19,971 nucleotides of DNA from positions 1-19,971 of the forward strand of contig JAQTOB010000010.1 in the NCBI GenBank assembly GCA_028713575.1, in the 5' to 3' direction. This document shows, piece after piece, positions 2,087-19,793 of this stretch (the stretch's first letter is position 1; each line of letters opens with the position of its first letter). The DNA is from Patescibacteria group bacterium (GTDB lineage: Bacteria > Patescibacteriota > Patescibacteriia > UBA2591 > UBA6264). The notes below the pieces were generated by a model. The model made no database searches and was not told where the DNA came from. It worked only from the letters and a program-made list of their open reading frames with translations. The translations under genes were made by a program, and so were the position numbers.

Positions 2087-3925
2087 ATGTGTGGAATAGC
2101 CGGAATTATTAATTTAGACCAAAAACCAGTTGATGAAAAAAAAGTAGAAAAGATGATAAAAATTATAAAGTATCGCGGTCCTGACGACGAGGGCTATTAT
2201 ATAAATGGAAGTGTTGGACTGGGTCACTGTCGCCTGTCTATTATTGATTTATCAAAAGCCGGGCACCAACCAATGACGAATGTAAGCAGGGACTTATGGA
2301 TGGTTTATAATGGAGAAATTTATAACTATCTTGAATTAAGAGAAAAACTAAAAAAAATCGGCTATCAATTTAAATCTAACACCGACACCGAAGTGATTAT
2401 TTACGCCTATAAAGAATGGGGAGAAAAATGTTTAGAAAAATTTAATGGGATGTGGGCGTTTGCTATTTGGGATGATAAAAAACAACGGCTTTTTTGCGCT
2501 CGAGATAGATTTGGCATTAAGCCATTTTACTACTACCTTGATGATAAAAAATTCATTTTTGCTTCGGAGATAAAGGCAATTTTAGAAAACAATGATATTA
2601 AACGACTGCCAAACGACCGGTTAATCTACGATTATCTGGTTTACGATCAAGAAGAACACACTGACAAAACATTTTTTAAAGGAATATTCAAATTACCTCC
2701 GGGCCGTTATCTGCTCATTAAAAACAAAAAACTAGAAATTAAAACCTGGTGGCAATTAAACCCTAAACCACTCAAACTCAAAAAAGAAACTGATTATCAG
2801 GAAAAATTTCATCGACTTTTAAATGATTCAATCAAACTTCGATTACGGAGTGACGTTCCAATTGGTACCTGTTTAAGTGGCGGATTGGATTCATCTTCGA
2901 TTGTCTGTATAGTTAATAAACTGATGAAACAGGATGGTGAAACTAACAAGAAAACTACTTTCACCTCCTGTTACAATAATCAGCCCGCCATAGACGAGAG
3001 GGAATATGTTGAAGAAATTGTTAAAAAAATTGGGGTGAAAAAAAATTATATTTTCCCAGCCATTGAGGATTTACAAAAAAACCTAAATCGTCTAGTCTGG
3101 CACCAAGAAGAACCTTTTAGTAGTTTAAGCATATATGCTCAATGGGCGGTAATGGAAAGGGGTAAAGAAAAAAAAGTTAAGGTTATTTTGGACGGACAAG
3201 GAGGAGACGAGGTGTTGCTGGGGTATGAAAGATATTATGTCTATTTTTTACTCAGATTGATTAAAGAATTTAGGTTTATCCGAATGATTAAGGAGGCTAA
3301 TCAAATAATAAAAAACTCTAAATTAAATTTCTTTCAATTTTTTAAATATTTCCTTTATTTTTCCGCGCCCAAAATTCGGTCTATTTACTTGAATAAAAGG
3401 GCTAAAAAAATACTGAATAAAAACTTTTTGAAAAGCAAAAAGGAAAAAACGTCTTCCATTCATTCAAAAAGGCCAACCGATCTCCAACTGTTGCAAAAAT
3501 TGGAAATAACGAGACTAAATTTGCCTAATTTGCTAAAATACGAGGACAAAAATTCATCGGCATTTTCTATAGAAGCTAGGACGCCTTTTCTCGACTATCG
3601 ATTAGTAGAATTTGCCTTTAATCTTCCCTATGATTTAAAAATCAAAAATGGTTGGTCAAAATATTTACTCAGGAAATCAATGAAAAATATTCTCCCCGAA
3701 AAAATCCGTTGGCGCAAAAATAAAATAGGGTTTGAGGTGCCTCAAAAAGCGTGGCTAACAACAATTAAGACTGAAATTAAAAAAATTTTTAGTCAAGAAA
3801 TTCACGCCTCAAAATACTTAAATCGTTATCAAATACTAAAATGCGTCGAAAATAATAATTTTGACGACAGAATATTATGGCGCGCCCTAAATCTAGAGTT
3901 ATGGATGCGAATTTTTAAATTATAG
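2087..3925 (+). CDS. Asparagine synthase (glutamine-hydrolysing) family amidotransferase, AsnB/WbpS-like
   Basis: N-terminal MCGIAG (Ntn Cys2 nucleophile), SGGLDSS PP-loop ATP-pyrophosphatase motif, 612 aa. The start lies 2 nt after the stop of the upstream gene. Confidence 0.9.
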   Translation: MCGIAGIINLDQKPVDEKKVEKMIKIIKYRGPDDEGYYINGSVGLGHCRLSIIDLSKAGHQPMTNVSRDLWMVYNGEIYNYLELREKLKKIGYQFKSNTDTEVIIYAYKEWGEKCLEKFNGMWAFAIWDDKKQRLFCARDRFGIKPFYYYLDDKKFIFASEIKAILENNDIKRLPNDRLIYDYLVYDQEEHTDKTFFKGIFKLPPGRYLLIKNKKLEIKTWWQLNPKPLKLKKETDYQEKFHRLLNDSIKLRLRSDVPIGTCLSGGLDSSSIVCIVNKLMKQDGETNKKTTFTSCYNNQPAIDEREYVEEIVKKIGVKKNYIFPAIEDLQKNLNRLVWHQEEPFSSLSIYAQWAVMERGKEKKVKVILDGQGGDEVLLGYERYYVYFLLRLIKEFRFIRMIKEANQIIKNSKLNFFQFFKYFLYFSAPKIRSIYLNKRAKKILNKNFLKSKKEKTSSIHSKRPTDLQLLQKLEITRLNLPNLLKYEDKNSSAFSIEARTPFLDYRLVEFAFNLPYDLKIKNGWSKYLLRKSMKNILPEKIRWRKNKIGFEVPQKAWLTTIKTEIKKIFSQEIHASKYLNRYQILKCVENNNFDDRILWRALNLELWMRIFKL

Positions 3926-4016: not shown

Positions 4017-5132
4017 ATGTCCAAAAATAAAAAAATGATTTGCATTTTAACCTCAGCTCATCCGATTTTTGATATCCGAATTTTTAATAAACAGGCTAAA
4101 ACTCTAGTTCAAGCTGGTTATGATGTTACTTTAATCGCCCAGCATGATAAAGAAGAAGTAGTTGATGGTATAAAGATTATTCCTTTACCAAAACCAAAAA
4201 AAAGATTTGAAAGATTTCTTAGGACAGATTATTTAATCTATAGAAAGGCTTTAGAGCAAAGAGCTAATATTTATCATTTTCATGACCCAGAATTATTACC
4301 TTGGACATTAAGATTAAAAAAGAAGACGGGGGCAAAAATAATCTACGATGCGCATGAAGACTATCATCAGGCAATATTATCAAAACCATGGCTCCCGTCA
4401 TTCTTAAGAAAAATAACTGCATCTATCTTCAATTTCTATGAAAAACATATATCTAAAAAATTCGATTATATTATTACCGCTACTCCACACATAACACAAA
4501 CATTTAAACAAAAAAACGTTGCTGACGTAAAAAATTATCCCCTAATTGATAAAAAAATCATAATAGATAATAATCTTAAGAAAAAAAATATCACCTTAAT
4601 ATATACTGGCGGGATAGAAAAAATTCGAGGAATAAAAGAAATTATTAGATCCTTAAGATATATTAAATATGACATAAGCTTGAAATTAATTGGCTGCTTT
4701 TCTGATAAAAATTTTGAACAAGAAATAAAAATGATGCCGGAATGGAAAAAGGTTGATTTCTCAGGACAAATAAAATTTGAACACATTAATCGTGAATTAG
4801 AGAATGCTAACATTGGATTGGCTCTTTACTGGCCCGAACCAAATCATATAGAAGCTCTCCCAAATAAAATATTCGAATATATGACTGCTGGTTTACCAAT
4901 AGTTGCCTCAAACTTCCCTTTATGGAAAGAAATTGTTGAAAACAACAATTGCGGAATCTGCGTAAATCCGTTAAAAGTAAACGAAATTGCTGAAACAATT
5001 GAATATTTAATAGAGCACCCCGATGAGGCAAAAAAGATGGGAGAAAATGGAAGAAAAGCGACTTTTGAAAAGTATAATTGGGAAAATGAAAGTAAAAAAT
5101 TATTGAAAATTTATAATAAATTGCTAGAATGA
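4017..5132 (+). CDS. GT-B fold glycosyltransferase, family 4-like
   Basis: 371 aa. C-terminal E-x7-E-like region (EALPNKIFEYMTAGLPIVASN). N-terminal GT4-like domain (HFHDPELLPW). Confidence 0.8.
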   Translation: MSKNKKMICILTSAHPIFDIRIFNKQAKTLVQAGYDVTLIAQHDKEEVVDGIKIIPLPKPKKRFERFLRTDYLIYRKALEQRANIYHFHDPELLPWTLRLKKKTGAKIIYDAHEDYHQAILSKPWLPSFLRKITASIFNFYEKHISKKFDYIITATPHITQTFKQKNVADVKNYPLIDKKIIIDNNLKKKNITLIYTGGIEKIRGIKEIIRSLRYIKYDISLKLIGCFSDKNFEQEIKMMPEWKKVDFSGQIKFEHINRELENANIGLALYWPEPNHIEALPNKIFEYMTAGLPIVASNFPLWKEIVENNNCGICVNPLKVNEIAETIEYLIEHPDEAKKMGENGRKATFEKYNWENESKKLLKIYNKLLE

Positions 5133-5163
5133 ATAAATAATCTAATATTATCCTAAAAAATTT

Positions 5164-5802
5164 ATGTTTAACAACTTTAAAAAAATTTTAATTTTAGCCC
5201 CACACACGGACGACGGGGAATTTGGTTGTGGAGGTACAATCGCTAAACTTATTAAGGGAGGTAAAAAAATTTATTATGTCGCCTTCTCAACCTGTGAGGC
5301 ATCGGTGCCAAAGGATTTTCCTAAAGATATTTTAAAAAAAGAGCTTAAACAAGCGACTAAAACACTTGGTATTAAGTCAAAAAATCTAACTATTTTAAAT
5401 TATCCCGTTAGACATTTCCCTCAAAATCGTCAAGCCATCTTAGAAGATATGATAAAACTTAAAAATAAAATTGTTCCTGATTTAATTTTCATGCCATCAC
5501 TACACGATATTCACCAAGATCATCTAACCATTGCTCAAGAAGGGCTCCGAGCATTTAAACAAAGCAGTATTTTGGGCTATGAAGACGTCTGGAATAATTT
5601 AACCTTTAATACCATCTGTTTTGTCCATTTAACGGAATTGATTATTAAGAAAAAAATTGAAGCTATAAAAAAGTATAAATCTCAGTCTAAAAAGCTTTAT
5701 GCCACCGCAAAATTTATTAGAAGTTTAGCCCATGTGAGGGGGATTCAAATAGGCACAGAATATGCAGAAGCCTTTGAAGTTATCCGTTGGATTATTAATT
5801 AA
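5164..5802 (+). CDS. PIG-L/LmbE family de-N-acetylase
   Basis: ILILAPHTDDGEFGCGGTIAKL (AHPDDE-type zinc motif) and the downstream HDIHQDH motif. 212 aa, typical size. Confidence 0.85.
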   Translation: MFNNFKKILILAPHTDDGEFGCGGTIAKLIKGGKKIYYVAFSTCEASVPKDFPKDILKKELKQATKTLGIKSKNLTILNYPVRHFPQNRQAILEDMIKLKNKIVPDLIFMPSLHDIHQDHLTIAQEGLRAFKQSSILGYEDVWNNLTFNTICFVHLTELIIKKKIEAIKKYKSQSKKLYATAKFIRSLAHVRGIQIGTEYAEAFEVIRWIIN

Positions 5803-5813
5803 AATATTAAAAT

Positions 5814-6875
5814 ATGCAAAAAATAAACATTCTTATCACCGGCACCGGGGCGCCAGGAGCGCCGAGTATAATACAAAGCCTAAGAGTAATTAACAGAAAA
5901 ATTAAAATTATCGGGGTAGATATGGATGAAAACTCTGTCGGTTTTTCAATGGTTGATAAATATTATTTAGTCAGACCGGCTGAAAACAAAAATTTCATCA
6001 AGGACATATTACAAATAGCAAAAAAGGAAAAAATAGATGTTATTATTCCTTTGGTTACAAAGGAATTGCTAAAATTTTCGGAAAACAAAAAACTTTTTGA
6101 AAAGGAAAACATCAAAGTATCTATTTCGGATCCTTTGGGATTAAAAATAGCTAATAATAAATATCTTTTAATGAAACATTGCCTAAAGGAGAATATTCCC
6201 GTTCCCGAGTTTAAATTAGTCAAAAATTATAATGAATTTAAAAGGGCTGTTTTTGATCTAGGATATCCTAAAAATAATGTGTGCTTTAAACCTCCAGTCT
6301 CAAATGGAATGAGGGGTTTTAGGATTCTAACCAAATCAATTAATAGGCTGGATATTTTACTCAATCAGAAACCCGATGACGTATTAACTTCATTGGAAGA
6401 AATTGCCCCCGTTCTTAAAGGTGCCAAATCCTTTCCTGACCTTTTGGTGATGGAATATCTCCCTGGACAAGAATACAGTGTTGACATTTTGGTTGACAAC
6501 GGGAGGTGTATTGTTGTTGTTCCCCGTTCTAGGGATAAACTAAAAATGGGAATTAGTTTTGTGGGAACAACGGTTAAGGATCAAGAAATTATAAAGTATT
6601 CAAAAAAAATAGTTGAAACACTAAAATTAAATGGAAATATCGGGCTACAATTTAAACGAGATAAAAAAGAAATTCCTAAAATTATAGAATCTAATCCCCG
6701 GGTTCAAGGAACGATGGTTTTAGCTACGGCGTCTAAGGCAAATTTAGTATATGGGGCCGTGCAACTATGTCTTGGAGAAAAAATTAAACCGTTTAAAATA
6801 GCCTGGGGGACAAAAATGATTCGCTATTGGAAAGAAGTATATTATGATAAGAGAGGACACTCATTTACACTCTAA
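5814..6875 (+). CDS. ATP-grasp superfamily ligase (carbamoyl-phosphate-synthase-L-like)
   Basis: N-terminal Rossmann-like ILITGTGAPGAPS. Central VCFKPPVSNGMRGFRIL and MEYLPGQEYSVDIL. C-terminal IESNPRVQGT (Mg-ATP site pattern). Confidence 0.75.
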   Translation: MQKINILITGTGAPGAPSIIQSLRVINRKIKIIGVDMDENSVGFSMVDKYYLVRPAENKNFIKDILQIAKKEKIDVIIPLVTKELLKFSENKKLFEKENIKVSISDPLGLKIANNKYLLMKHCLKENIPVPEFKLVKNYNEFKRAVFDLGYPKNNVCFKPPVSNGMRGFRILTKSINRLDILLNQKPDDVLTSLEEIAPVLKGAKSFPDLLVMEYLPGQEYSVDILVDNGRCIVVVPRSRDKLKMGISFVGTTVKDQEIIKYSKKIVETLKLNGNIGLQFKRDKKEIPKIIESNPRVQGTMVLATASKANLVYGAVQLCLGEKIKPFKIAWGTKMIRYWKEVYYDKRGHSFTL

Positions 6876-7488
6876 TTTTTCTGATGGGAAAAATAGTATT
6901 GAAGAAATGGCCCAAACTGCTATTAAATTAGGGTTAAAAAAAATAACATTTACCGACCATGTTTGGGAAACAAGCGACTGGATAGATGATTATGTGGAAG
7001 AAATTAAAGAAGTTCGGAAAAAATATCCAAAGATAAAAATATATTCTGGGATAGAGGCAAAAGTAATTGACTTAAGTGGGAATATTGACGCTAATAAATC
7101 TTTCTTTAATAAAGTTGATTATGTTTTGGGTGCTTTCCATAGAATACCAACAGGGAAAAGGACTTATCTCTCTAGTGAAGAAATTATTAAAAATAAAAAG
7201 ATAGCTCTTAATTTCTGGTATAAAGCAATAATAAACTTATTGAAAAATAAAAATGTAGATATTATTGCTCATCCTACATTTATTCTAAAAAGATATAAAA
7301 TAAAATTACCGAAATGGCTGAAAAAGGAAATTGCTGAAAATGCTCGAAAAACAAATAAAACATTTGAGATTAATAGAAAACACAAAGTCCCAAATAAAGA
7401 ACTTATAAAAATACTAAAAGAACATAATATAAAACTTATATACGGTAGCGATAGTCACAATATTAAAGAGCTTAAAATGTTTAATTAA
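6844..7488 (+). CDS. PHP-domain metal-dependent phosphoesterase (histidinol-phosphatase-like)
   Basis: MIREDTHLHSNFSDGK...ITFTDH...AHPT...GSDSH, the His/Asp ladder of PHP/HisK-type phosphatases. Overlaps the ATP-grasp gene by 32 nt. Confidence 0.75.
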   Translation: MIREDTHLHSNFSDGKNSIEEMAQTAIKLGLKKITFTDHVWETSDWIDDYVEEIKEVRKKYPKIKIYSGIEAKVIDLSGNIDANKSFFNKVDYVLGAFHRIPTGKRTYLSSEEIIKNKKIALNFWYKAIINLLKNKNVDIIAHPTFILKRYKIKLPKWLKKEIAENARKTNKTFEINRKHKVPNKELIKILKEHNIKLIYGSDSHNIKELKMFN

Positions 7489-7503
7489 TAAATATTTAAA
7501 AAT

Positions 7504-8310
7504 ATGAACAAAAGAAGTTTAAAAAAAATTTTTTCTTATTTTTGTTATATACCAAAAATCCCAAAAATAATTTTGTTGATTAAAAATTGGCCATCTTATT
7601 TTTTAAATTGGCTGGGCATTACCAAAAGAAATGTTACCTATTACTTTCGGAATGGTTATAAAATAAAAACAGTTGAAGCCATTGATGTCTGTACAATCAA
7701 TGGTATTTTTATTATTGAACAATACAAGAATGCCACGGAAAACTATAATAACACCACTAATCCTGTCGTAATTGACTTGGGAGCCAATATTGGACTTTTT
7801 TCTATTTATACAAAAATGAAAATTCCAAACGCCGAAATATTCGCTTACGAACCGGTCCCAAAAAATTTTGACATTCTCTTAGAAAATATAAAAAAGAATG
7901 ATCTAAAAAAAATAACACCCTATTGTCTTGGAATTTCTGGCAAAGAAGAAAAACGATATTTATATTTAGAAGACTCTGTCTCGCACTCTATTTACCTTAA
8001 TAATCAAAATAAAGGGAAGCAATGTATTAACATAACCTGTATAACTCTTGAAAAAATTTTAAGGGATAACAAAATTGATATTTGCGACATTCTAAAAATA
8101 GATACAGAAGGGTCTGAATATGAAATTCTCTATAACTGCTCGAGGAACACTTTAGAAAGAATTAAAAAAATTATATTGGAATGCCACCACATTAAATCAT
8201 TTGAAAATTATAATAAAAAATCTATGGAAAAATTTTTAATAGATAATGAATTTTCAATAAGTGATGTCGATGAGAATATCATATATGCGGTAAATAAAAA
8301 AAATAAATAA
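7504..8310 (+). CDS. FkbM-family SAM-dependent methyltransferase
   Basis: VIDLGANIGLFSIY (SAM motif I), FAYEPVPKNF, and ILKIDTEGSEYEIL typical of the FkbM family. Confidence 0.8.
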   Translation: MNKRSLKKIFSYFCYIPKIPKIILLIKNWPSYFLNWLGITKRNVTYYFRNGYKIKTVEAIDVCTINGIFIIEQYKNATENYNNTTNPVVIDLGANIGLFSIYTKMKIPNAEIFAYEPVPKNFDILLENIKKNDLKKITPYCLGISGKEEKRYLYLEDSVSHSIYLNNQNKGKQCINITCITLEKILRDNKIDICDILKIDTEGSEYEILYNCSRNTLERIKKIILECHHIKSFENYNKKSMEKFLIDNEFSISDVDENIIYAVNKKNK

Positions 8311-8330: not shown

Positions 8331-9329
8331 ATGAATTTAAGAAATAAAAAAATTTTAATTGCTGGCGGAGCTGGATTTATTGGCTCACATTTGTGTGAAA
8401 AACTATTAAAAGAGAAGGGGGAAATTACTGTTTTTGATAACTTTAGTACTGGAAAATCATCAAACCTAGAATCAATTAAAAATAAAATTAAAATAATTAA
8501 AGGAGACATACAAAATGCCAAAGAAATAGATAAAGCATCTAAGGCTCAAGATATTATTATTCACGAAGCCTTTCCTTATGGTGCGGCCACAAGGAGTGTT
8601 GATAAACAATTTGTTGGAGACGGAACTATTGGCACGTTTAATGTACTTCGTTCGGCCTTAAAAAATAATATTAAAAAAGTGGTCTATGCCTCTACTGTCG
8701 CGGTTTACGGAATCAAAAAAAATTCTCCTCAAAAAGAAGAAATTGAAAAAAATCCATTTTTACCATATGGAGCCACTAAATATTTAGGAGAACTATACTG
8801 TTCTAGTTTTTCTAATGTATATGGATTAGAAACTGTTAGTCTAAGGTATTTCAACGTATTTGGCCCTCGATATGCCACTTTTGATCACAGCGCCATGATT
8901 CTCTTTCTAAAAAGGGCAATTCAAAACAAAGACTTAATTATTTACGGAGATGGACGGCAAATCCGTGACTATACCTACGTCGACGATATAGTGGAAGGAA
9001 CTATCCTGGCCGCTAAAAAAGAAAAAAATCATGGGACTGTTTATAATCTCGGTAAAGGACGTGGACTAAGTATTTTTGATCTGGCTAAAAAAATCGTTGA
9101 ATTAACCGGGTCTAAAAGTAAAATCCATTTTGGGAAAAAAAGCGAATATAAGATTCTCAAACGAGGCCTTCCTTATGGAGTTACCAAAAAAATAAACGGA
9201 AATTTTGTCGATGAAAGAAATTATGTAGCAAACATAAATAAAGCAAAAATAGAATTAGGATATCTGCCTAAAATATCCCTAGAACAAGGAATAATAAAAA
9301 CTTTTCAATGGATGAAAGAAAAAATTTAA
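8331..9329 (+). CDS. Extended-SDR NAD-dependent nucleotide-sugar epimerase/dehydratase/reductase
   Basis: ILIAGGAGFIGSHL, DNFSTGK, YGATKYLGE (YxxxK), RYFNVFGPR. Confidence 0.9.
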   Translation: MNLRNKKILIAGGAGFIGSHLCEKLLKEKGEITVFDNFSTGKSSNLESIKNKIKIIKGDIQNAKEIDKASKAQDIIIHEAFPYGAATRSVDKQFVGDGTIGTFNVLRSALKNNIKKVVYASTVAVYGIKKNSPQKEEIEKNPFLPYGATKYLGELYCSSFSNVYGLETVSLRYFNVFGPRYATFDHSAMILFLKRAIQNKDLIIYGDGRQIRDYTYVDDIVEGTILAAKKEKNHGTVYNLGKGRGLSIFDLAKKIVELTGSKSKIHFGKKSEYKILKRGLPYGVTKKINGNFVDERNYVANINKAKIELGYLPKISLEQGIIKTFQWMKEKI

Positions 9330-10348
9330 AAGATAGAATATCTCTTCCTTTGGTTTCAATAATAATAGCTTGTCGAAATGAAAAAGAAGTCATTGATAAA
9401 TGCCTTGATTCTCTAATTGGACAAACTTACCCCAGCCATAAAATAGAGATTCTTGTAGTTGATGGAATGAGCGAAGACAAAACTCGTGAAATTGTTAGGG
9501 GATACTCTAAAAAATATTCTTCTATTCATTTATTCGACAATATTAAAAGAAATACTCCGTGTGCTTTTAACATTGGTATCAAAGAATCAAAGGGTGAGGT
9601 TATCACAATAGCAAGCGGTCACGCGATTTATCAAAAAAATTATATATCCACATATGTAGAATCATTAAAAAAATATAATGCCGATTGTGTTGGCGGATTA
9701 CAAACAACCTCTACTTCAAAAAATTCTTATGTTGCCAAATCAATTGTTTTTTGTCTTTCTTCTTTATTCGGTGTTGGTAATGCTCTCTATAGGATAGCAA
9801 ATACCCATCAGCAACCAAAAATTGTTGATACCGTTCCTTTTGCCTGCTACAAAAGAAAAGTGTTTGAAAAAATTGGTTTATTTAATGAAAAATTAGTTCG
9901 TAGCCAAGATATGGAATTTAATATAAGATTAAAAAGAGCAGGGGGCAAAATTATCTTAATTCCTGAGATTATGGGCTGTTATTATCCCCAGAACACTAAC
10001 CTTAGAAAATTTTTCATATACCACCTAAAAGACGGATTTTGGTCTACTTATCCCCTAAAATTTGTTAAAACACCCTATAAATTAAGACATTATATTCCTT
10101 TGATTTTTTTAATGAGTCTATTTGGAATGGGGATATTGGGAACTTTTTCTTTATTTTTTTTCCGGTTGTTTCTATCTATATTCGGATTATACCTTTTAGC
10201 TAATCTTTATTTTTCTATAGAAACTGCCATAAAAGAAAAAAATTTTAAATATTTTTTTATTATGCCAATAGTATTTGGTATTCGTCATATTGGATATGGA
10301 TTGGGTTCAATTTGGGGTTTAATAAAAATACTAAAACCTGAGAAATAA
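9308..10348 (+). CDS. Family 2 glycosyltransferase with a C-terminal multi-helix membrane anchor
   Basis: VSIIIACRNE, VVDGMSEDKT (DxD-like), RSQDMEFNIRL. The C-terminal roughly 90 aa are strongly hydrophobic (3-4 helices). Overlaps the upstream gene by 22 nt. Confidence 0.85.
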   Translation: MDERKNLKDRISLPLVSIIIACRNEKEVIDKCLDSLIGQTYPSHKIEILVVDGMSEDKTREIVRGYSKKYSSIHLFDNIKRNTPCAFNIGIKESKGEVITIASGHAIYQKNYISTYVESLKKYNADCVGGLQTTSTSKNSYVAKSIVFCLSSLFGVGNALYRIANTHQQPKIVDTVPFACYKRKVFEKIGLFNEKLVRSQDMEFNIRLKRAGGKIILIPEIMGCYYPQNTNLRKFFIYHLKDGFWSTYPLKFVKTPYKLRHYIPLIFLMSLFGMGILGTFSLFFFRLFLSIFGLYLLANLYFSIETAIKEKNFKYFFIMPIVFGIRHIGYGLGSIWGLIKILKPEK

Positions 10349-10352
10349 CTCT

Positions 10353-10970
10353 ATGCTAAAAAGACTATTTGATATTATATTCTCTTTCTTGGGAATAATA
10401 TCAACCCTTCCTTTATTAATACTAATTACTATAACAATAAGAATAGATTCAAAAGGACCAATTTTTTATAAAGGAATACGAATGGGCAGATTTAATAAAT
10501 CCTTCAAAATTCTCAAATTCAGAACTATGTTTGTTAATTCTGAAATAAATGGTCCGCCCATAACCATTAAAAACGACACAAGAATTACAAAGGTGGGAAG
10601 ATTTCTAAGAAAATATAAGTTAGACGAATTACCACAGTTTATAAATGTATTAAAAGGAGAAATGAGTTTAGTCGGGCCAAGGCCCGAAATTCCCCTTTAT
10701 TTCAAATATTATACTGAAGAAGAAGAAAAAATAATCTTATCTGTCCGTCCCGGGATAACGGATTATGGCTCAATTGAATTTCATGATGAAAGTAAACTTC
10801 TTGCCGGAAGTAAAAATCCTGTTGAAGACTATGTAAAAAAAATAAAAGATAAAAAAGTAAAACTTCAATTGCAATATATTAAAAATCAATGTTTATGGCT
10901 TGACGTTAAAATTATTCTCAAAACCATAAAAACTATAATCTATACGAGATTGTATAAAAAAAACATATGA
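10353..10970 (+). CDS. Small monotopic phosphoglycosyltransferase (bacterial sugar transferase, PglC/WbaP-C-terminal-like), initiating enzyme
   Basis: LKRLFDIIFS + re-entrant helix, KGPIFYKGIRMG, KFRTM, DELPQFINVLKGEMSLVGPRP. Confidence 0.9.
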   Translation: MLKRLFDIIFSFLGIISTLPLLILITITIRIDSKGPIFYKGIRMGRFNKSFKILKFRTMFVNSEINGPPITIKNDTRITKVGRFLRKYKLDELPQFINVLKGEMSLVGPRPEIPLYFKYYTEEEEKIILSVRPGITDYGSIEFHDESKLLAGSKNPVEDYVKKIKDKKVKLQLQYIKNQCLWLDVKIILKTIKTIIYTRLYKKNI

Positions 10971-12208
10971 AAAAGACCCTGAATCTCACTTGGAATACTT
11001 TAAATAATCTAGAAAATATTTATGGAGAGTCTTTTTATTTATTAGATTCGGAAAAATTCAAAAAAAATTACAATGAATTTCTTAAATCATTCCGAAAGAT
11101 TTATCCTAATTCTTTTATAGCATATTCATATAAAACAAATTATATTCCTAAACTCTGCAAATTAGTTAATCAAATGGGAGGATATGCAGAAGTGGTTTCT
11201 GAAATGGAATTCAATTTAGCTATTAAAATCGGAGTCACTCCTAAAAAAATCATTTATAACGGTCCGTATAAAAGCGAAAATTCCATTAAAAAATGTTTAT
11301 TAAACGGCGGCATGGTTAATTTAGATTCTCTCTCTGAGGTAGATATAATTGAAAAAATTGCCCATAAATACCCTAAAATAAATATGTCTGTGGGATTAAG
11401 ATGTAATTTTGACATCGGAACTCCTCTAATATCAAGATTTGGACTTGATATAAATGAATTTTCTGAAGCTTTTAAAAGGATAAACAAAATTAGGAATATT
11501 AATGTTAAGGGAATTCATTGTCATTTCCCGAACAGATCTCTGGAAACATTCATCTCTCGAATTGATAAAATGCTATATTTATCCAAAAAATTCTTTAAAA
11601 ATTCTCCCGAATTTATTGATATCGGCGGAGGATATTTCGGAAAAATGGATTTAGTTCTAAAAAAACAATTTAACTGTGAAATACCAAGTTATCAAGAATA
11701 CGCAGATATTATTGCTACAAAAATAGAAAATGCTTATAAAAATATAAATAATTCAAAAAAGCCTAAACTTTTCCTTGAACCCGGAACAGCTCTTGTGGCA
11801 GATACAATGAAATTTGTAGTAAAGGTTATTAGTACTAAAAATGTGCGCAATAAATGTATTGCAATTGTTTCGGGAAGTAAATTTAATATTTCACCAACAT
11901 CAGATACTATAAATTTACCCATTAAAGTGTATCGTCAATGTAGAAAAAATATTGCCAATAAACAGAAAACTATTGATATAGCTGGCTATACCTGCATTGA
12001 GAACGATTATTTATACAAAAAATATAAAGGAAACTTAGAAATAGGTGATTACATTGTGTTTAACAATGTAGGGTCATATTCATTAGTTATGAAACCACCA
12101 TTTATTTTGCCAAATTGTGCAGCCATTGAACATTCTCCTAAAAAGGGATATAATATTATTAAAAGACAAGAAAATTTGAAAGATATTTTTAATACTTTTC
12201 GCTTTTAA
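10967..12208 (+). CDS. PLP-dependent decarboxylase, fold type III (Orn/Lys/Arg/DAP decarboxylase family)
   Basis: AYSYKTN (PLP-Lys), EVVSEMEFNLAIKIGV..IIYNGPYKS, GIHCHF, IDIGGGYFG, EPGTALVAD, GYTCIENDYL. ATGA start/stop overlap with the upstream gene. Confidence 0.8.
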   Translation: MKKTLNLTWNTLNNLENIYGESFYLLDSEKFKKNYNEFLKSFRKIYPNSFIAYSYKTNYIPKLCKLVNQMGGYAEVVSEMEFNLAIKIGVTPKKIIYNGPYKSENSIKKCLLNGGMVNLDSLSEVDIIEKIAHKYPKINMSVGLRCNFDIGTPLISRFGLDINEFSEAFKRINKIRNINVKGIHCHFPNRSLETFISRIDKMLYLSKKFFKNSPEFIDIGGGYFGKMDLVLKKQFNCEIPSYQEYADIIATKIENAYKNINNSKKPKLFLEPGTALVADTMKFVVKVISTKNVRNKCIAIVSGSKFNISPTSDTINLPIKVYRQCRKNIANKQKTIDIAGYTCIENDYLYKKYKGNLEIGDYIVFNNVGSYSLVMKPPFILPNCAAIEHSPKKGYNIIKRQENLKDIFNTFRF

Positions 12209-12251
12209 ATCTACTACTATTTTTTAAAATTATTACTTTTAAAATAAATTT

Positions 12252-13178
12252 ATGAAATCTTTAGGTTCTAAAAAAAATAATCTTGTTTGGTTGGCTGGTA
12301 AAATTATATCTAGTCAAGAAGCTAAAATATCTATTTTATCCCCCACATGTCAATATGGTCTCAATGTCTTTGAAGTAATTAGGTGTTATTTAGATAAAAA
12401 AAATGATCAACTCTTAGCTTTTAGGCTAAGGGACCACCTTCTACGACTTTTCCGTTCTGCAAAAATAATGAGAATCAAACCTAAATATACAATAAATGAA
12501 ATACAAAGTATATTTATTAAAACAGTAGCTGCAAATAAATATAAGGAGGATATCACTGTCCGTATAGTCCTCTTTATAAATGAGTCTGGAAGCTGGAATT
12601 CTGAATATAAGGGTGAATTATTAATATCTCCTATTTCTCGAGGAAGGACCCACGGTTTTAAGACTGGAATTAGTTGTTGTATCAGTTCATGGGAACGTAT
12701 AAATGATAAATGCCTCCCCCCTCGAATAAAAACAGGAGCCAATTACATTAATGGGCGAATGGCTCAACTTGAAGCAATAAACAATAAGTATGATTCGGCC
12801 CTCTTTCTTAATAACAAGGGTAATCTCTCTGAAGCCCCGGGTTCTTGTATTTTTATTGTAAAGGAGAATAAATTAATAACTCCGCCCATTACTGCATCAA
12901 TCTTGGAAAGCGTTACAAGGGACAGTATCATAAAAATATCCCAAGAAGAACTGGGAATTTCTATTGTGGAAAGAGACATAGACAGAACTGAGCTATATCC
13001 CTGTGACGAGGTGTTTTTATGTGGAACAACGATGGAAATCGTTCCAGTGATATCTGTTGATAGAATAAGAATCGGAAATGGCAAAATCGGACCAATAACT
13101 AAGACTATAAGACAAAAATACTTCAACGTCATAAAGGGAAAAATTAATAAGTATAAAGGGTGGGTTACCGCTTTTTAA
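12252..13178 (+). CDS. PLP-dependent aminotransferase, fold type IV (branched-chain / D-amino-acid aminotransferase family)
   Basis: GLNVFEVIRCY, RIKTGANYINGRMAQLEA (catalytic Lys context), EAPGSCIFIVKENKLITPP, ILESVTRDSII, 308 aa. Confidence 0.8.
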   Translation: MKSLGSKKNNLVWLAGKIISSQEAKISILSPTCQYGLNVFEVIRCYLDKKNDQLLAFRLRDHLLRLFRSAKIMRIKPKYTINEIQSIFIKTVAANKYKEDITVRIVLFINESGSWNSEYKGELLISPISRGRTHGFKTGISCCISSWERINDKCLPPRIKTGANYINGRMAQLEAINNKYDSALFLNNKGNLSEAPGSCIFIVKENKLITPPITASILESVTRDSIIKISQEELGISIVERDIDRTELYPCDEVFLCGTTMEIVPVISVDRIRIGNGKIGPITKTIRQKYFNVIKGKINKYKGWVTAF

Positions 13179-13200
13179 TATAAAAATAACATAGATTGAA

Positions 13201-14013
13201 ATGGAATTTATATTTATCACAAATAATCCTGAAATGGCGGCATACGCTCAAAAAATAGGGGTTGAAAGAATTATGGTTGATTTGGAATATATAGGGAAAA
13301 AAAAACGCCAAGGACATTTGGATACCTTAATATCTAACCATTCTATAAATGATATTAAAAAAGTAAAAAAAATCATTAATCATTCAAAACTTTTAGTTAG
13401 GGTAAATCCAATATATGAAAGATCTAAAGAAGAGATTGATAAAGCCATTTCTAATGGCGCGGAAATCATTATGCTTCCAATGTTCAAAACGGTTTCGGAG
13501 GTTGAAAAATTTATATCAATAATCAATGGGAGGGTCAAAAATATTCTCCTGCTTGAAACGTCACAAGCCCTAGTGAGAATAAATGAAATATTAAAAATAA
13601 AAGGAATTAACGAAACCTATATAGGACTTAATGACCTTCACTTATCAATGGGATTAAATTTTATGTTTGAATTATTAAGTGGAGGCATTATCGAATATTT
13701 AGCCAATATTTTTAAAAAACATCAAATGAAGTGGGGATTTGGCGGTATAGCAAAAATTGGACAAGGAGACCTCCCTGCTGAATATATTTTAGCAGAACAC
13801 GTAAGGCTAAATTCTCAAATGGTTATATTGTCTCGCACTCTACACGAAAAGAGTCAAACAATCCAAGAATTAAAAAGAACTAATTTTATGAAAGAGATCC
13901 AAAAACTGAGGAGAAAGGAAAAAGAAATTAAAAATTGGCCGGCGGAAAAATTCATTAAAAATAAATCTATTATGGAAGAAAAAGTGAAGCGGATAGTTAA
14001 AAAATTACAATGA
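13201..14013 (+). CDS. HpcH/HpaI aldolase / citrate-lyase-beta-like TIM-barrel protein with a Lys-rich helical C-terminal tail
   Basis: VRVNP...AISNGAEIIMLPMFKTVSEVEKF...ILLLETSQALVRINEIL...YIGLNDLHLSMGL follows the family pattern (R..n, PmV.s.eE, iET, iG..DLs). The last roughly 60 aa (KEIQKLRRKEKEIKNW..KVKRIVKKLQ) are an extra charged helix. Confidence 0.55.
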   Translation: MEFIFITNNPEMAAYAQKIGVERIMVDLEYIGKKKRQGHLDTLISNHSINDIKKVKKIINHSKLLVRVNPIYERSKEEIDKAISNGAEIIMLPMFKTVSEVEKFISIINGRVKNILLLETSQALVRINEILKIKGINETYIGLNDLHLSMGLNFMFELLSGGIIEYLANIFKKHQMKWGFGGIAKIGQGDLPAEYILAEHVRLNSQMVILSRTLHEKSQTIQELKRTNFMKEIQKLRRKEKEIKNWPAEKFIKNKSIMEEKVKRIVKKLQ

Positions 14014-14026
14014 TTAACGCTTAAAA

Positions 14027-14509
14027 ATGTCATTAAAAATAAAATCTAAAATTCATCACAAAAAAATTCCCCGGCAGGGATTTTCTGTCCAGTCACTAAA
14101 ACAAGCCAATCCAAAAAACTCGCGAGGAAGACGAACGTGGGAATATAAAATGGCCAAAGGGCAACAATTGTCGTTTTATCAACGATTGAAAGGGGAAAAA
14201 TTCGGAAATCACTTCCATAAAGGCGAAGACCCTTCAAAAAATCCGGAAATAATTATTTTTACTTCCGGCATTGTTCAGATAAAATTTACTTATTTGTCAG
14301 GCAAAGAAAAAAATGTCATTATTGATGCTACTAAAGCGCCACAAAAACTTCTCCTCTTTCCATATGTTTTACATGCTAACGAGGCAAAAACAGATTGCAC
14401 TTATGTCGAGTATAGACAGACTTGGTTTGATAAAAAAAGGCCTGACACTTTCTCTGAGAAAGAATTCCTGAAAATGCAATCGCAAAAAAACAGGCCGCGT
14501 AATCAATAG
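14027..14509 (+). CDS. Small cupin-fold protein (WbuC/FdtA/CapF-C-terminal-like sugar-modifying cupin)
   Basis: GNHFHKGEDPSKNPEIIIFTSGIVQIKF resembles the cupin G-x-H-x-H...E...G motif. 160 aa. Its GC is intermediate between the island and the backbone. Confidence 0.45.
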   Translation: MSLKIKSKIHHKKIPRQGFSVQSLKQANPKNSRGRRTWEYKMAKGQQLSFYQRLKGEKFGNHFHKGEDPSKNPEIIIFTSGIVQIKFTYLSGKEKNVIIDATKAPQKLLLFPYVLHANEAKTDCTYVEYRQTWFDKKRPDTFSEKEFLKMQSQKNRPRNQ

Positions 14510-14595
14510 TTCAAATATAATTAAAACGAGGACTGTCCCCGAAAAGATTCATTTTCTTAGCCGCATCAATACTGGATTGTAACCCGATTTTTGAA

Positions 14596-14625
14596 AAATA
14601 GTCGATATTCGACTATTTAATTTTT
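14596..14625 (+). terminator. Hairpin plus T-run, candidate intrinsic terminator of the 14-gene operon
   Basis: AAATAGTCGA-TAT-TCGACTATTT (perfect 10-bp stem, 3-nt loop) followed by AATTTTT. Lies 87 nt after the cupin stop. The stem is AT-rich, so strength is uncertain. Confidence 0.4.
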
Positions 14626-14687
14626 AGAGGCTCAGTCTCCAAAATCGGACCTACAAAGTATTTAAAAATTAAAGGGGGTTAAAAACC

Positions 14688-14718
14688 TTGGTGGCCGAGC
14701 CACCAAAAGCCACCAAAA
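14688..14718. repeat. GC-rich hairpin overlapping a tandem 10-mer
   Basis: TTGGTGGC-CGA-GCCACCAA (8-bp stem, 14688-14706). GCCACCAAAA is repeated in tandem at 14699-14708 and 14709-14718. Confidence 0.6.
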
Positions 14719-14748
14719 CCAAAACGAAGTAAAAATCAAAATAGACAT

Positions 14749-14771
14749 ATGTAGGGGTTCAACCCCTCCAG
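14749..14771. repeat. Solo copy of a dispersed repeat (ATGTAGGGGTTCAACCCCT[C/G]CAG)
   Basis: 22/23 identity with 19794-19816 in the same orientation. It contains the internal mini-palindrome AGGGGTT-C-AACCCCT. Confidence 0.7.
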
Positions 14772-14865
14772 AACACCAATATATATCCCCTCTTTGCTTG
14801 AAAATAACTGAAAGGAAAAGGGCTAGAAAAAGGAGGTGCGAAATAGAAATAAGGAAAGTTTAGAT

Positions 14866-14900
14866 AAAAAAGTTTGGGAACTAAGTTCCCAAACTTTTTT
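14866..14900. terminator. Strong bidirectional rho-independent terminator
   Basis: AAAAAAGTTTGGGAAC-TAA-GTTCCCAAACTTTTTT: perfect 16-bp arms (GC core GTTTGGGAAC), 3-nt loop, A6 upstream and T6 downstream. Confidence 0.8.
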
Positions 14901-14902
14901 AA

Positions 14903-14943
14903 TTGACATAAATTTCAATGGATATATACTGAATATATCCATT
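14903..14943 (+). promoter_or_regulatory. Sigma-70-like promoter with an overlapping 11-5-11 perfect inverted repeat (operator-like), upstream of the capD/pglF-like gene
   Basis: TTGACA (14903-14908), 16-nt spacer, TATACT (14925-14930). AATGGATATAT-ACTGA-ATATATCCATT spans 14917-14943 and covers the -10 element. Confidence 0.5.
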
Positions 14944-15038
14944 TCATTTATTTTACATTATGGTAAAAAAACTGAAATAAGTCTATGAATTTAAAAAATA
15001 AAAAATATTGAGATTCCCTAAGACGGGAAAATATCAAT

Positions 15039-17317: not shown

Positions 17318-18298
17318 ATGGAAAATTATAACATTCATCTTGACCAAAACCGGATGAAAAAAGAACCCGAAGAACACAAAGAAGTCCTTTATCATGAAGA
17401 AGACGAAATAGATTTACGGGATTATATCAACGTCCTGCTTAAAAGAAAACGAATTATCGGCGCCATTTTTCTGGTGGCCGTCATCGCGGCCGTAGTAATC
17501 AGCCTACTGATGACGCCCGTCTATGAAGCGACCAATCTGATAGAAATCGGAAAAATAAAAAACGAAACTATTGAAACTTTTGATGACATCAAGGCCGTTT
17601 TTAGCCGACCAGCAATCTTAAAAGAAGTCCATAATAAACTCGGCTTGCCAAAAAACGTTAACGTGGAAAGCGTAGTGGGAAAATTTACTTTAGAAAAGGA
17701 AAATGAAACCAATGCCAGTAAATTCATTAAAGTAAGCGGCCGGGCGGAAACGCCGGAAAAATCAGTAGAAGTAGCCAATGTCGTGACGCAAATTTTACTT
17801 GACCGACATCAACAATTATTCAGTGAAGCAGAAAGAATGTTTGAAATAGAAATGGAAAGCATTAATAAAAATAAGGAAAAAACGGATAAAGATATTGTTC
17901 AGGTCCAAAAAGACATCGTCCGACTGGAACAAGATGTAAAAATATATGAACAAAGAATAAATCAAAAAGACAATGCCCAATCAGACGCGCAGGGGCGAAT
18001 TGCTGAAAGCTATATTAATCTTTTGGCTACTGTAAAAAACCAAAAGGAAAACAAAGAATATCAATTACTTAACTTAGAACAGCAACTAGTTAATTTAGAC
18101 CAACAAATTCAGGAAAAAGAATATGAAAAGGCCTATCAAACCAAGACAACGGAAGTAGAAATTCCCGCCACCCCGCCGGAAACAAGGATTAGTCCCAAGA
18201 GAAAACAAAATGTGATGATTGCCGGTGTGTTGGGTTTGTTTGTCGGCATTCTCTACGCTTTTGGCGCGGAATACTTCAGTAAAGAAAAAATGGTGTGA
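17318..18298 (+). CDS. Wzz-like polysaccharide co-polymerase / chain-length determinant (no kinase domain)
   Basis: DEIDLRDYINVLLKRKRIIGAIFLVAVIAAVVISLLMTPVYEA (Wzz N-terminal motif plus TM1). Long coiled-coil middle. Pro-rich segment, then C-terminal TM (VMIAGVLGLFVGILYAFGAEYF). Confidence 0.8.
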   Translation: MENYNIHLDQNRMKKEPEEHKEVLYHEEDEIDLRDYINVLLKRKRIIGAIFLVAVIAAVVISLLMTPVYEATNLIEIGKIKNETIETFDDIKAVFSRPAILKEVHNKLGLPKNVNVESVVGKFTLEKENETNASKFIKVSGRAETPEKSVEVANVVTQILLDRHQQLFSEAERMFEIEMESINKNKEKTDKDIVQVQKDIVRLEQDVKIYEQRINQKDNAQSDAQGRIAESYINLLATVKNQKENKEYQLLNLEQQLVNLDQQIQEKEYEKAYQTKTTEVEIPATPPETRISPKRKQNVMIAGVLGLFVGILYAFGAEYFSKEKMV

Positions 18299-18395: not shown

Positions 18396-18440
18396 CACTG
18401 CCCCTATTGGCATCTTTGATGCTAATAAGGGCAGTTTTTT
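18396..18440 (+). terminator. Rho-independent terminator downstream of the Wzz-like gene
   Basis: CACTGCCCCTATTGGCATC-TTT-GATGCTAATAAGGGCAGT (18 positions, 1 mismatch, 1 G-T wobble) followed by a T6 run (18435-18440; its first T is also the last stem base). Confidence 0.75.
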
Positions 18441-18451
18441 ATTCTAGATTT

Positions 18452-19006
18452 ATGAAAATTTTTAGAAAACAAAAAGTCTGTATCTATATTGATGGGAATA
18501 ATTTCTATAAGTATCTGAAAAACAAAGAAATTGATTTCCCAAAAGGAACAAAGTTTGATTTTAAAAAATTCTCCGAATATTTAACGGGCGAAAGAGAATG
18601 TATTTCTAAAAGATATTATATCGGCATCGTAAGAAATTTCGACCATAGTAAAAGAAGCCAAGAATTGGTAATGGGACAACAAAAATTCATCTCTAAAATA
18701 AAAAATGACGGATTTATAGTAAAACCCGGACGGATAATATATGATCAAGGAAAAATAAGAGAAAAAGGTACTGATGTAAAAATCGCCGTCGATTTAATTA
18801 CAGGTGCAATTGATGACTATTACGATACCGCCATTCTAGTAAGTTCTGACACTGATTTGATTCCCGCAATAAAATACGTAAAATTCAAAAATAAAAGGAT
18901 CGAATATATCGGCTTTTCCCACCGACCATCACTGGGTATACAAAAGTATGCCACTTTGTCAAAATTACTTTCTTCGGATGATCTGGAAAAATTTAAGGGT
19001 ATATAA
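18452..19006 (+). CDS. NYN-domain (LabA/DUF88-like, PIN-related) predicted ribonuclease
   Basis: KVCIYIDGNNFY, KGTDVKIAVDLI, AILVSSDTDLIPAI (acidic catalytic residues of NYN). Start moved to ATG 18452 because the track's TTG start at 18407 lies inside the upstream terminator hairpin. Confidence 0.8.
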   Translation: MKIFRKQKVCIYIDGNNFYKYLKNKEIDFPKGTKFDFKKFSEYLTGERECISKRYYIGIVRNFDHSKRSQELVMGQQKFISKIKNDGFIVKPGRIIYDQGKIREKGTDVKIAVDLITGAIDDYYDTAILVSSDTDLIPAIKYVKFKNKRIEYIGFSHRPSLGIQKYATLSKLLSSDDLEKFKGI

Positions 19007-19032
19007 AAATATTTATTAAAGATGAAAAATAT

Positions 19033-19374: not shown

Positions 19375-19381
19375 AATTAAA

Positions 19382-19726: not shown

Positions 19727-19750
19727 AAAAATTGTTTTTAAAATACCATT

Positions 19751-19786
19751 AAAATAAAATCCTCTTTTAAAAGAGGATTTTATTTT
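19751..19786. terminator. Bidirectional rho-independent terminator between convergent genes
   Basis: Perfect 36-bp palindrome AAAATAAAATCCTCTTTT|AAAAGAGGATTTTATTTT, with A-run/T-run flanks on both strands. Confidence 0.8.
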
Positions 19787-19793
19787 ATCAGTT

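Follow-up and report, generated by a model that had tools for sequence, protein, structure and literature searches.

A conserved deacetylase, ATP-grasp ligase and phosphatase module in bacterial and archaeal surface-sugar gene clusters

The DNA analysed here (henceforth referred to as the window) is an entire contig of 19,971 bp from a metagenome-assembled genome of a Patescibacteria group bacterium, a member of the Candidate Phyla Radiation (CPR), in which all substantial open reading frames (ORFs) lie on the forward strand. Four consecutive ORFs within it encode a PIG-L/LmbE-family de-N-acetylase, an ATP-grasp carboxylate-amine ligase, a PHP-family phosphoesterase and an FkbM-family methyltransferase, with 11 nt between the first two ORFs, an overlap of 32 nt between the second and third and 15 nt between the last two (Table 1). 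A first reading of the letters, made without database searches (the sequence-only reading), had described these genes as a four-gene cassette for sugar decoration, and both the ORF list and the junction sequences agree with the spacing that it gave. All the motifs it quoted are present as well (APHTDDGEFGCGGT and HQDH in the deacetylase, MEYLPGQEYSVD and ESNPRVQG in the ligase, DTHLHSNFSDG and TDH in the phosphoesterase and LKIDTEGSEYEIL in the methyltransferase), and the four families had been named correctly, each with a Pfam match above its gathering cut-off. To judge from its gene content, the surrounding window is a glycan assembly locus.

The deacetylase scores 71 bits against PF02585 (gathering cut-off 28.2). 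Its best NCBIfam match is BshB1, which stays below cut-off (68.6 vs 182.5), as does BshB2 (40 vs 195). The (A/P)H(P/T)DD and HxDH motifs of the family are present as P13-H14-T15-D16-D17 and H117-Q118-D119-H120, and in 54 homologues linked to the module, conservation of residues H14, D16, D17, H117, D119 and H120 is 93% or higher.

The ligase matches ATPgrasp_Ter (PF15632, 116.9 bits vs 29.1) and, also above gathering cut-offs, PylC-like_N and ATP-grasp_3. Its AlphaFold2 (AF2) model (predicted local distance difference test, pLDDT, 90.9) matches many ATP-grasp structures with a Foldseek probability of 1.0, and across 22 sequences the ATP/Mg2+ residues K159, E214, E292, N294 and R296 do not vary; a glycine-rich loop near the N terminus (G10–P17) is likewise invariant. 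The nearest solved structure, and also the closest sequence match in the PDB, is 2pn1 (template modelling score, TM, 0.76/0.86), an Exiguobacterium sibiricum protein named 'carbamoylphosphate synthase large subunit, split gene' that is the closest structure and yet shares only 16% identity; like PRK12767, it is uncharacterised. RizA, PurK, PurT, biotin carboxylase, carbamoyl phosphate synthase (CPS) and Ddl are distant structural matches (TM about 0.6, 14–19% identity). Among named families the closest is NCBIfam PRK12767, 'carbamoyl phosphate synthase-like protein', with NCBIfam scores below cut-off. The sequence-only reading had allowed that the ligase might prove to be a housekeeping enzyme with no conserved linkage to its neighbours. 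We rejected a housekeeping ATP-grasp, given that the CPS large subunit (CarB, 31.7 vs 1027), PurT (16.8 vs 339), LysX (15.3 vs 275.6) and cyanophycin synthetase (15 vs 850) all score far below their cut-offs; the nearest structure is 2pn1 and, as described below, the linkage is conserved. The database label for such ATP-grasps, 'carbamoyl-phosphate synthase large subunit', is generic or misleading. Their sequence matches place them in an uncharacterised 'CPS-like' group (PRK12767, ATPgrasp_Ter, PylC-like), as the constant element of the module.

The phosphoesterase scores 66.7 bits against PF02811 (gathering cut-off 26.4) and falls below the cut-offs of the HisJ subfamily (hisJ_fam TIGR01856, 72.9 vs 90.2; NF005996, 47.5 vs 133). 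The label carried by its database relatives, 'HisJ family histidinol phosphate phosphatase', is again generic or misleading. All nine metal ligands (H7, H9, D14, H39, E71, H99, H143, D203 and H205) are kept across homologues, and a Foldseek search with the AF2 model (pLDDT 97.8) finds the PolX PHP domain, histidinol-phosphate phosphatases (HisJ/HisK) and YcdX.

A search for relatives of the ATP-grasp ligase at E≤1e-5 returned 1056 homologues in metagenomic data, and identities of 55–81% span Parcubacteria, WOR-3 and Bacteroidales. We fetched 80 species-level genome loci with ATP-grasp identities of 37–66%, of which 79 were analysable, drawn from CPR bacteria, WOR-3, Bacteroidota, Firmicutes, Chloroflexota, Planctomycetota, methanogens, haloarchaea, DPANN, Asgard and Hadarchaeota. 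Flanks of 4, 6 or 8 kb around the ATP-grasp gene were examined, depending on the analysis, and the neighbouring ORFs were clustered without bias and then annotated by Pfam and NCBIfam. A PIG-L gene was found in 53 of the 79 loci, in 49 of them no more than 150 nt from the ATP-grasp gene, and is nearly always directly upstream and on the same strand; no additional PIG-L copy was found in the 4-kb and 8-kb flanks searched. A phosphatase gene is near the ATP-grasp gene in 64 loci (within 150 nt in 57) and is present in 47 of the 53 loci with PIG-L. In the window and in 30 of the 79 loci, from both domains of life, the PHP ORF overlaps the 3' end of the ATP-grasp ORF. Linkage of PIG-L, ATP-grasp and phosphatase is far above chance, and the conserved unit of deacetylase, ligase and phosphatase is widespread in bacterial and archaeal surface-sugar clusters, almost always among flippase, polymerase, priming transferase and Wbp genes. 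Among methanogens the triad was seen in Methanoculleus sp., Methanofollis, Methanoregula and Methanosarcina. On the evidence of gene order and spacing, the PIG-L/ATP-grasp/PHP trio is a real, conserved and co-transcribed unit inside a polysaccharide locus.

This part of the cassette thus stood, and its fourth member fell outside the core. The FkbM protein of the window is a clear family member (PF05050, 71 bits vs 22.7; TIGR01444, 101.4 vs 37.7), and an FkbM gene is near the module in one of the 79 loci. The closest relatives, CPR bacteria with 81% ATP-grasp identity, have the gene order GT4-GT4-PIG-L-ATP-grasp-FkbM-PHP-GT2 (GT, glycosyltransferase), where FkbM stands between the ATP-grasp and PHP genes. 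With its rarity and its shuffling position in close relatives, we rejected FkbM as a core member, and it is an accessory specific to the CPR lineage of the window. Methyltransferases of other folds were found in 17 of the 79 loci within 8 kb and in 6 within 2 kb.

One of these closest relatives (locus L081, 81% identity) also encodes an Acetyltransf_6 protein (PF13480, FemAB-like GNAT; 2417–3421) and a pyruvyl transferase, and may therefore place two distinct amide-forming systems on the same glycan. We take the Acetyltransf_6 family to be linked to VimA, the aminoacyl transferase discussed below. Neither an Acetyltransf_6 nor a CE4 gene was found in the window.

What fills the phosphatase slot varies. 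A HAD_2 hydrolase (PF13419, about 210 aa, Pfam E 1e-12 to 1e-23) that keeps the DxDxT and GDxxxD motifs takes the place of PHP in 30–34 loci, and on a rough neighbour-joining tree of the ATP-grasp proteins the PHP/HAD character switches at least seven times. Since two unrelated phosphatase folds repeatedly fill one slot, dephosphorylation would be a required step and not the work of a chance neighbour, which we regard as strong evidence that it is integral to the module. The suggestion of the sequence-only reading that such a module ligates and then dephosphorylates gains strong indirect support from this repeated swapping.

PHP-fold tyrosine phosphatases occur in Gram-positive capsule loci and a Wzz-like gene lies further along the window, on which grounds the PHP protein could be read as a CpsB/YwqE-like protein-tyrosine phosphatase that acts on chain length via Wzz and a bacterial tyrosine kinase and is only by chance the neighbour of the ATP-grasp gene. 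We find this hardly credible. Neither Pfam nor NCBIfam gives a CpsB-type match, none is among the top 50 that Foldseek finds, and there is no kinase partner in the window. The overlap of PHP with ATP-grasp in loci of both domains of life, the replacement of PHP by small-molecule-type HAD_2 hydrolases and the presence of the module in archaea and in minimal operons without nearby chain-length genes also speak against such a role.

The deacetylase slot, too, can be filled by another fold or be empty. In Brevibacillus choshinensis (LJJB01000010, locus L086) and a Brevibacillus sp. a CE4 deacetylase gene (PF01522) lies directly 5' of dehydrogenase-ATP-grasp-PHP, followed by genes for a C5-epimerase-like protein and a glycosyltransferase. 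An amine-generating enzyme is found near the ATP-grasp gene in most loci, PIG-L being by far the most specific partner. The Brevibacillus protein encoded 3' of PHP resembles PF06662, the C-terminal domain of glucuronyl C5-epimerase (10790–12094 in L086, 8801–10105 in L088), and hints at uronic acid epimerisation at the polymer level, as in heparosan or alginate-type pathways. An uncharacterised family of about 260 aa, which we call c13, stands between the DegT gene and either PIG-L or ATP-grasp, or 5' of GT2-ATP-grasp-HAD in haloarchaea, in 15 loci (3920–4732 in L009, 8570–9352 in L043 and 13 more; alignment A2). It has invariant RHDxD and GHE...H motifs and further His residues, without a Pfam or NCBIfam match. 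Its identity as a CE4 deacetylase could not be established, as the CE4 matches were all below threshold and hhalign against the Brevibacillus CE4 protein was negative.

In ten Bacteroidales loci (L005, L007, L008, L010, L012, L015, L016, L020, L021 and L025) the order GT4-PIG-L-ATP-grasp-HAD always follows directly 3' of a housekeeping glycine-tRNA ligase gene, and where the flank is long enough the module also adjoins a conserved block that includes dihydrouridine synthase. The Bacteroidales module therefore has a fixed chromosomal position, with variable glycan genes after it. The class-II aminoacyl-tRNA-synthetase-like gene 5' of it was considered as a functional partner and set aside, being a genuine glycyl-tRNA synthetase (671 bits vs 312) whose proximity reflects shared lineage synteny.

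Gene order, family membership, intact active sites and a linkage kept across bacteria and archaea are what the sequences show, and any explanation of them has to join de-N-acetylation, ATP-dependent amide ligation and phosphate-ester hydrolysis. For the substrates, the order of the steps and the polarity of the ligation, which we infer, our preferred reading, held tentatively and at somewhat less than an even chance, is that the PIG-L enzyme frees a sugar amine, the ATP-grasp ligase adds a phosphorylated acid to it and the phosphatase then yields an N-glyceroyl or N-seryl sugar. The module would thus be a three-step sugar tailoring within a glycan assembly operon, often flanked by GT4 and GT2 genes. 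From its family, the PIG-L enzyme would strip the N-acetyl group off a sugar derived from N-acetylglucosamine (GlcNAc), in many loci presumably the 2,3-diacetamido-uronic acid of the Wbp pathway, and leave a free amine. The ATP-grasp enzyme would turn the carboxylate of a small phosphorylated acid, for which 3-phosphoglycerate and O-phosphoserine are the best candidates, into an acyl-phosphate and form an amide with the sugar amine. A dedicated phosphomonoesterase, PHP in the window and HAD elsewhere, would then unmask the hydroxyl, as its repeated non-orthologous displacement suggests, and the end product would be a sugar of N-glyceroyl or N-seryl type. In the CPR lineage FkbM may add a further methyl group, and an AsnB-type enzyme would probably amidate a uronic acid of the same glycan.

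This reading accounts for all three activities, and the sugars that it predicts exist. The Campylobacter pair Cj1438C/Cj1435, described below, gives it a biochemical precedent, in which a phosphorylated partner is ligated and a dedicated phosphatase then acts. Porphyromonas gingivalis makes a 2-N-seryl-3-N-acetylglucuronamide with Wbp enzymes, the CE4 deacetylase VimE, the FemAB-like aminoacyl transferase VimA and the AsnB-type WbpS (PMC7468200), and the S-layer N-glycan of Methanoculleus marisnigri contains a 2,3-diaminoglucuronic acid that bears N-acetyl and N-glyceroyl groups and is amidated at C-6 (PMC11407970). The structural models also seem to count in its favour. The structural neighbours of the ligase, RizA, PurT, PurK and biotin carboxylase, activate small carboxylates, and the PHP protein most resembles histidinol-phosphate phosphatases, whose substrates are small phosphomonoesters. 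The amine partners of RizA, PurT, PurK and biotin carboxylase are larger phosphorylated molecules.

Several observations weigh against it. An adjacent phosphatase is absent in 15 of the 79 loci, and 26 have no PIG-L gene within their 8-kb flanks. The operon of Neobacillus consists only of dehydrogenase-ATP-grasp-PHP-GT, with neither deacetylase nor aminotransferase nearby, and no WbpA, WbpB or WbpE gene is present in the 20-kb window. The top 120 relatives retrieved with the Methanoculleus ATP-grasp do not include M. marisnigri itself, and the link to its glycan is one of analogy only. The FemAB-like GNAT at the locus of the closest relative could itself carry out aminoacylation. Besides, the ATP-grasp tree on which the switches were counted is rough and has no support values, and substrates are not readable from sequence. 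A bolder claim, which we rate as unlikely, is that the module is the missing enzymology of N-glyceroyl and N-seryl amino-uronic sugars, with 3-phosphoglycerate or phosphoserine as donor of the ATP-grasp enzyme and a swappable PHP or HAD finisher; by analogy, examples would be the N-acetyl-N-glyceroyl-diaminoglucuronamide of methanogen S-layers and analogues of the seryl 'linking sugar' of P. gingivalis.

Glycosyltransferases are recurrent neighbours, and the GT4 and GT2 genes, left out of the gene set named by the sequence-only reading, are better-supported partners of the trio than the methyltransferase that it included. A gene of the GT1/GT4 cluster lies within 8 kb of the ATP-grasp gene in 43–44 loci, and close orthologues of the window GT4 (E 3e-66 to 2e-75) adjoin the triad in a Methanophagales archaeon (L004), a Planctomycete (L034), L051 and a Methanosarcina (L054). 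The window GT4 reaches no NCBIfam equivalog cut-off (BshA, MshA and GlcNAc-phosphatidylglycerol synthase are weak matches), and is the probable partner that places the sugar on which the module acts. A GT2-cluster gene is found within 8 kb in 24–25 loci. Orthologues of the window GT2 (E 3e-56, 3e-44 and 1e-42) directly follow PHP or ATP-grasp in L006, L077 and L055, a GT2-cluster gene lies 3' of PHP in L001 and a GT2 gene 3' of PHP in L081; such positions suggest a probable functional partner of the phosphatase step. In a relative with 77% identity the PHP and GT2 are fused in a single 551-aa protein, seen in two independent assemblies (L084, 1219–2874; L085, 1607–3262).

These neighbours bring to mind mycothiol and bacillithiol synthesis (MshA/MshA2/MshB/MshC and BshA/BshB/BshC), where, as proposed for the module, a GT4 places GlcNAc, a PIG-L enzyme deacetylates it and the amine receives a new acyl group from a ligase or acyltransferase. 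For mycothiol a phosphatase is required as well (PMC7278568). In a pathway of this kind, or one like that of glucosylglycerate, the GT4 or GT2 would put GlcNAc on a phosphorylated acceptor (inositol phosphate, glycerol phosphate or 3-phosphoglycerate), the phosphatase would remove the phosphate in parallel with MshA2, GpgP and SPP, PIG-L would deacetylate and the ATP-grasp would add an ordinary acid or amino acid, giving a side-chain or small-molecule glycoside. Fusions of a GT with a phosphatase are characteristic of pathways with phosphorylated acceptors. The PHP-GT2 fusion would fit such a scheme, as would the presence side by side of GT4, phosphatase, PIG-L deacetylase and ligase, matching the published mycothiol pathway (PMC7278568), the BshB1 match of the PIG-L protein and the weak BshA, MshA and GlcNAc-phosphatidylglycerol synthase matches of the GT4. 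However, the BshA, BshB and MshA scores are all far below cut-off, many triads have no adjacent glycosyltransferase (e.g. L028, L030 and L043), and it is the ATP-grasp and not the GT4 ORF that the phosphatase ORF overlaps. The module, moreover, is almost always found within glycan assembly loci and not in the context of thiol metabolism, and the known ligases are the Cys-tRNA-synthetase homologue MshC or BshC, not ATP-grasp enzymes. Taken together, we consider this scheme quite improbable.

The preferred reading, in which a phosphorylated acid is ligated to a freed amine, draws on the company of Wbp-type genes, a link to the 2,3-diamino-uronic acid pathway that the sequence-only reading had not seen. 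Of the 79 loci, 39 have one or more Wbp-type genes within 8 kb and 27 have two or more. GFO/IDH/MocA oxidoreductases (WbpB-like) are present in 29 loci, DegT aminotransferases (WbpE-like) in 28, uridine diphosphate (UDP)-sugar 6-dehydrogenases (WbpA/WecC-like) in 19 of 79 within 8 kb and flippases in 16. The recurrent order in Firmicutes and archaea, dehydrogenase-GFO-DegT-c13-PIG-L-ATP-grasp-PHP, suggests that the module often ends a Wbp-type pathway for 2,3-diacetamido-2,3-dideoxy-uronic acids. AsnB-like genes occur near the triad in 8 of the 79 loci at 8 kb, directly beside PHP in Haloferax sp. YSSS75 (L059) and a Methanobacteriaceae genome (L073), both of which carry Wbp genes, triad and AsnB in a single block. 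By analogy with WbpS (PMC7468200), the AsnB of the window is possibly an amidating or acetamidino-forming enzyme for the uronic acid of the same glycan.

In the Wbp/Vim system of P. gingivalis and Tannerella forsythia (WbpA/B/E/D, deacetylase VimE, aminoacyl transferase VimA, GT4 VimF and WbpS) an N-acetyl group is swapped for a C2/C3 acyl group, Ser or Gly (PMC7468200). The likeness lies in the chemical logic and, at many of the related loci, in the genomic company: a start from a Wbp-derived di-N-acetyl uronic acid, with a GT4 and an AsnB-type amidotransferase alongside. The enzymes differ, with PIG-L in place of CE4 and ATP-grasp in place of a FemAB-like GNAT; the Vim system has no phosphatase step, and the window has no Wbp genes.

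The presence of uronic acid genes can also be read the other way. With the opposite polarity, the ATP-grasp would activate a uronic acid, either within the glycan or as a nucleotide sugar, at its C-6 carboxylate and couple it to a phosphorylated amine (ethanolamine-phosphate, serinol-phosphate, phosphoserine or aminopropanol-phosphate), PHP or HAD would dephosphorylate the product and PIG-L would perform a separate tailoring. Biochemical precedent comes from the HS:2 capsule of Campylobacter jejuni, where the C-terminal domain of Cj1438 (Cj1438C) is an ATP-dependent amidoligase, Cj1435 is a HAD phosphatase and Cj1436 and Cj1437 make the phosphorylated amines (PMC11800397); what the sequence-only reading had said of Cj1438C and Cj1435 was accurate. 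Both systems pair an ATP-dependent amide ligase with a dedicated phosphatase in a surface-polysaccharide locus, and in about 30 loci the phosphatase of the module is a HAD too. In Firmicutes the UDP-sugar 6-dehydrogenase directly 5' of the ATP-grasp gene is its tightest partner, and the Wbp association would supply uronic acids. The Neobacillus operon would be self-sufficient under this polarity alone, which makes it the simpler explanation there. The pyridoxal phosphate (PLP) decarboxylase and aminotransferase of the window belong to the functional classes of Cj1436 and Cj1437, and the PHP resembles a histidinol-phosphate phosphatase, the substrate of which is an amino-alcohol phosphate.

Against this stands the PIG-L gene, the tightest partner overall (within 150 nt in 49 of the 79 loci), which such a polarity leaves unexplained. 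The UDP-sugar dehydrogenase is found in only 19 of the 79 loci within 8 kb and is not present in the window, and no conserved enzyme for making a phosphorylated amine accompanies the module. In the loci with a single uronic acid pathway and AsnB beside the triad (L059 and L073), an ATP-grasp directed at C-6 could be redundant. All this considered, we think the opposite polarity, the main rival of the preferred reading, rather unlikely. Homology between the window ligase and Cj1438C was rejected. Cj1438C, taken from the supplement of PMC11800397, is a TupA-like protein (PF14305, E 1.3e-37), whereas the window ATP-grasp has no PF14305 match, and hhalign of the window-family alignment against Cj1438C gives a probability of 0.1%, i.e. 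no detectable profile similarity. Cj1435 belongs to PF12710, in contrast to PF13419 for the HADs of the module and the PHP of the window, and the Campylobacter system has no PIG-L partner. Ligation to a phosphorylated partner followed by phosphate removal, and polarity towards the uronate carboxylate, are proven there; for the module, the coupling of phosphatase and ligase genes would fit the former, and the latter is the less favoured of two possible polarities. Judged by these sequence comparisons, the module resembles the Campylobacter system in logic, not descent.

Teicoplanin and A40926 are further cases in which a GlcNAc is deacetylated and then re-acylated. The chemical logic of the module thus has precedents (Cj1438C/Cj1435, Wbp/Vim, mycothiol and teicoplanin), but its enzyme set does not. 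No paper on the module was found in the literature collection searched, an absence that applies to that collection only.

The remaining genes of the window are listed in Table 1. No terminator-like site was found on the forward strand within 4017–8310 in a scan of the window; the only ones close by (8362–8386) are weak and lie inside the following ORF. A clean forward-strand terminator at about 14873–14902, with the best promoter-like site of the window at 14903–14930, suggests that the transcription unit ends at about 14.87–14.93 kb; promoter-like sites in the window are not above chance expectation. After the flippase remnant come 530 nt of non-coding sequence with several hairpins, and GC content rises downstream from about 0.30 to about 0.41. 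The features of 14027–15038 would fit a border at which a variable glycan island gives way to a more conserved PglF-like/Wzz block. A 17-bp perfect palindrome near the end of the window (19750–19787) resembles a bidirectional terminator, and scanning the window for Rfam families and tRNA genes gave no match. Between the priming transferase and the flippase remnant, the IlvE-type aminotransferase passes the NCBIfam branched-chain aminotransferase cut-off (298 bits vs 279). Together with the decarboxylase and HpcH-like genes it looks like a route from pyruvate and an aldehyde via a 4-hydroxy-2-oxo acid and an amino acid to an amino alcohol, and these genes could be the source of an amine or acid substituent specific to the window; they were found within 6 kb of the ATP-grasp gene in none of the 79 related loci.

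Table 1. Genes of the 19,971-bp window in their order along the contig, with family evidence.
Feature	Position	Strand	Evidence or remark
Putative repeat-unit polymerase		+	Heads the gene order, before AsnB
AsnB-type glutamine amidotransferase	2087–3925	+	PF00733 and GATase domains; TIGR01536, 499 bits
GT4-type glycosyltransferase (Glycos_transf_1 / Glyco_transf_4)	4017–5132	+	Pfam
PIG-L/LmbE-family metal-dependent de-N-acetylase	5164–5802	+	PF02585
ATP-grasp carboxylate-amine ligase	5814–6875	+	PF15632, PylC-like_N, ATP-grasp_3
PHP-family trinuclear-metal phosphoesterase (HisJ / YcdX / PolX-PHP type)	6844–7488	+	PF02811
FkbM-family S-adenosylmethionine methyltransferase	7504–8310	+	PF05050, TIGR01444
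SDR epimerase/dehydratase		+	After FkbM, before GT2
GT2 glycosyltransferase	9308–10348	+	PF00535
PglC-like priming transferase		+	Next in order after GT2
Diaminopimelate-decarboxylase-like PLP decarboxylase, IlvE-type class IV aminotransferase, HpcH/HpaI-like aldolase-fold protein	10967–14013
160-aa ORF, probable flippase remnant	within 14027–15038		Weak Polysacc_synt_C match
PglF-like dehydratase			3' of the flippase remnant
Wzz-like gene	17318–18298
NYN-domain protein, DUF5674 protein, unannotated 114-aa ORF	18407–19726		3' of Wzz

Surface glycans of archaea, CPR bacteria and Bacteroidota bear unusual N-acyl and amide groups (glyceroyl, seryl, glycyl, threonyl) whose biosynthetic enzymes are mostly unknown, and in P. 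gingivalis the seryl amine of the linking sugar anchors the cargo of type IX secretion. The compact and apparently uncharacterised three-enzyme module described here is a candidate for such decoration steps, and cultured carriers are available: Brevibacillus and Neobacillus have the module, Haloferax sp. YSSS75 the full triad, and the ATP-grasp is also found in Methanosarcina and Haloferax. To our knowledge, no ATP-grasp enzyme has been described that acylates a de-N-acetylated sugar with a phosphate ester as donor, and a phospho-acyl-donor mechanism, if true, would extend the known chemistry of these ligases. Together with the Campylobacter capsules there would then be two cases, evolved independently, in which a phosphorylated metabolite is attached and then dephosphorylated. 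If the proposal holds, proteins now annotated as 'carbamoyl-phosphate synthase large subunit' or 'HisJ family histidinol phosphate phosphatase' would be better annotated, and CPR bacteria, Bacteroidota, Firmicutes and archaea would share a common route of sugar decoration.

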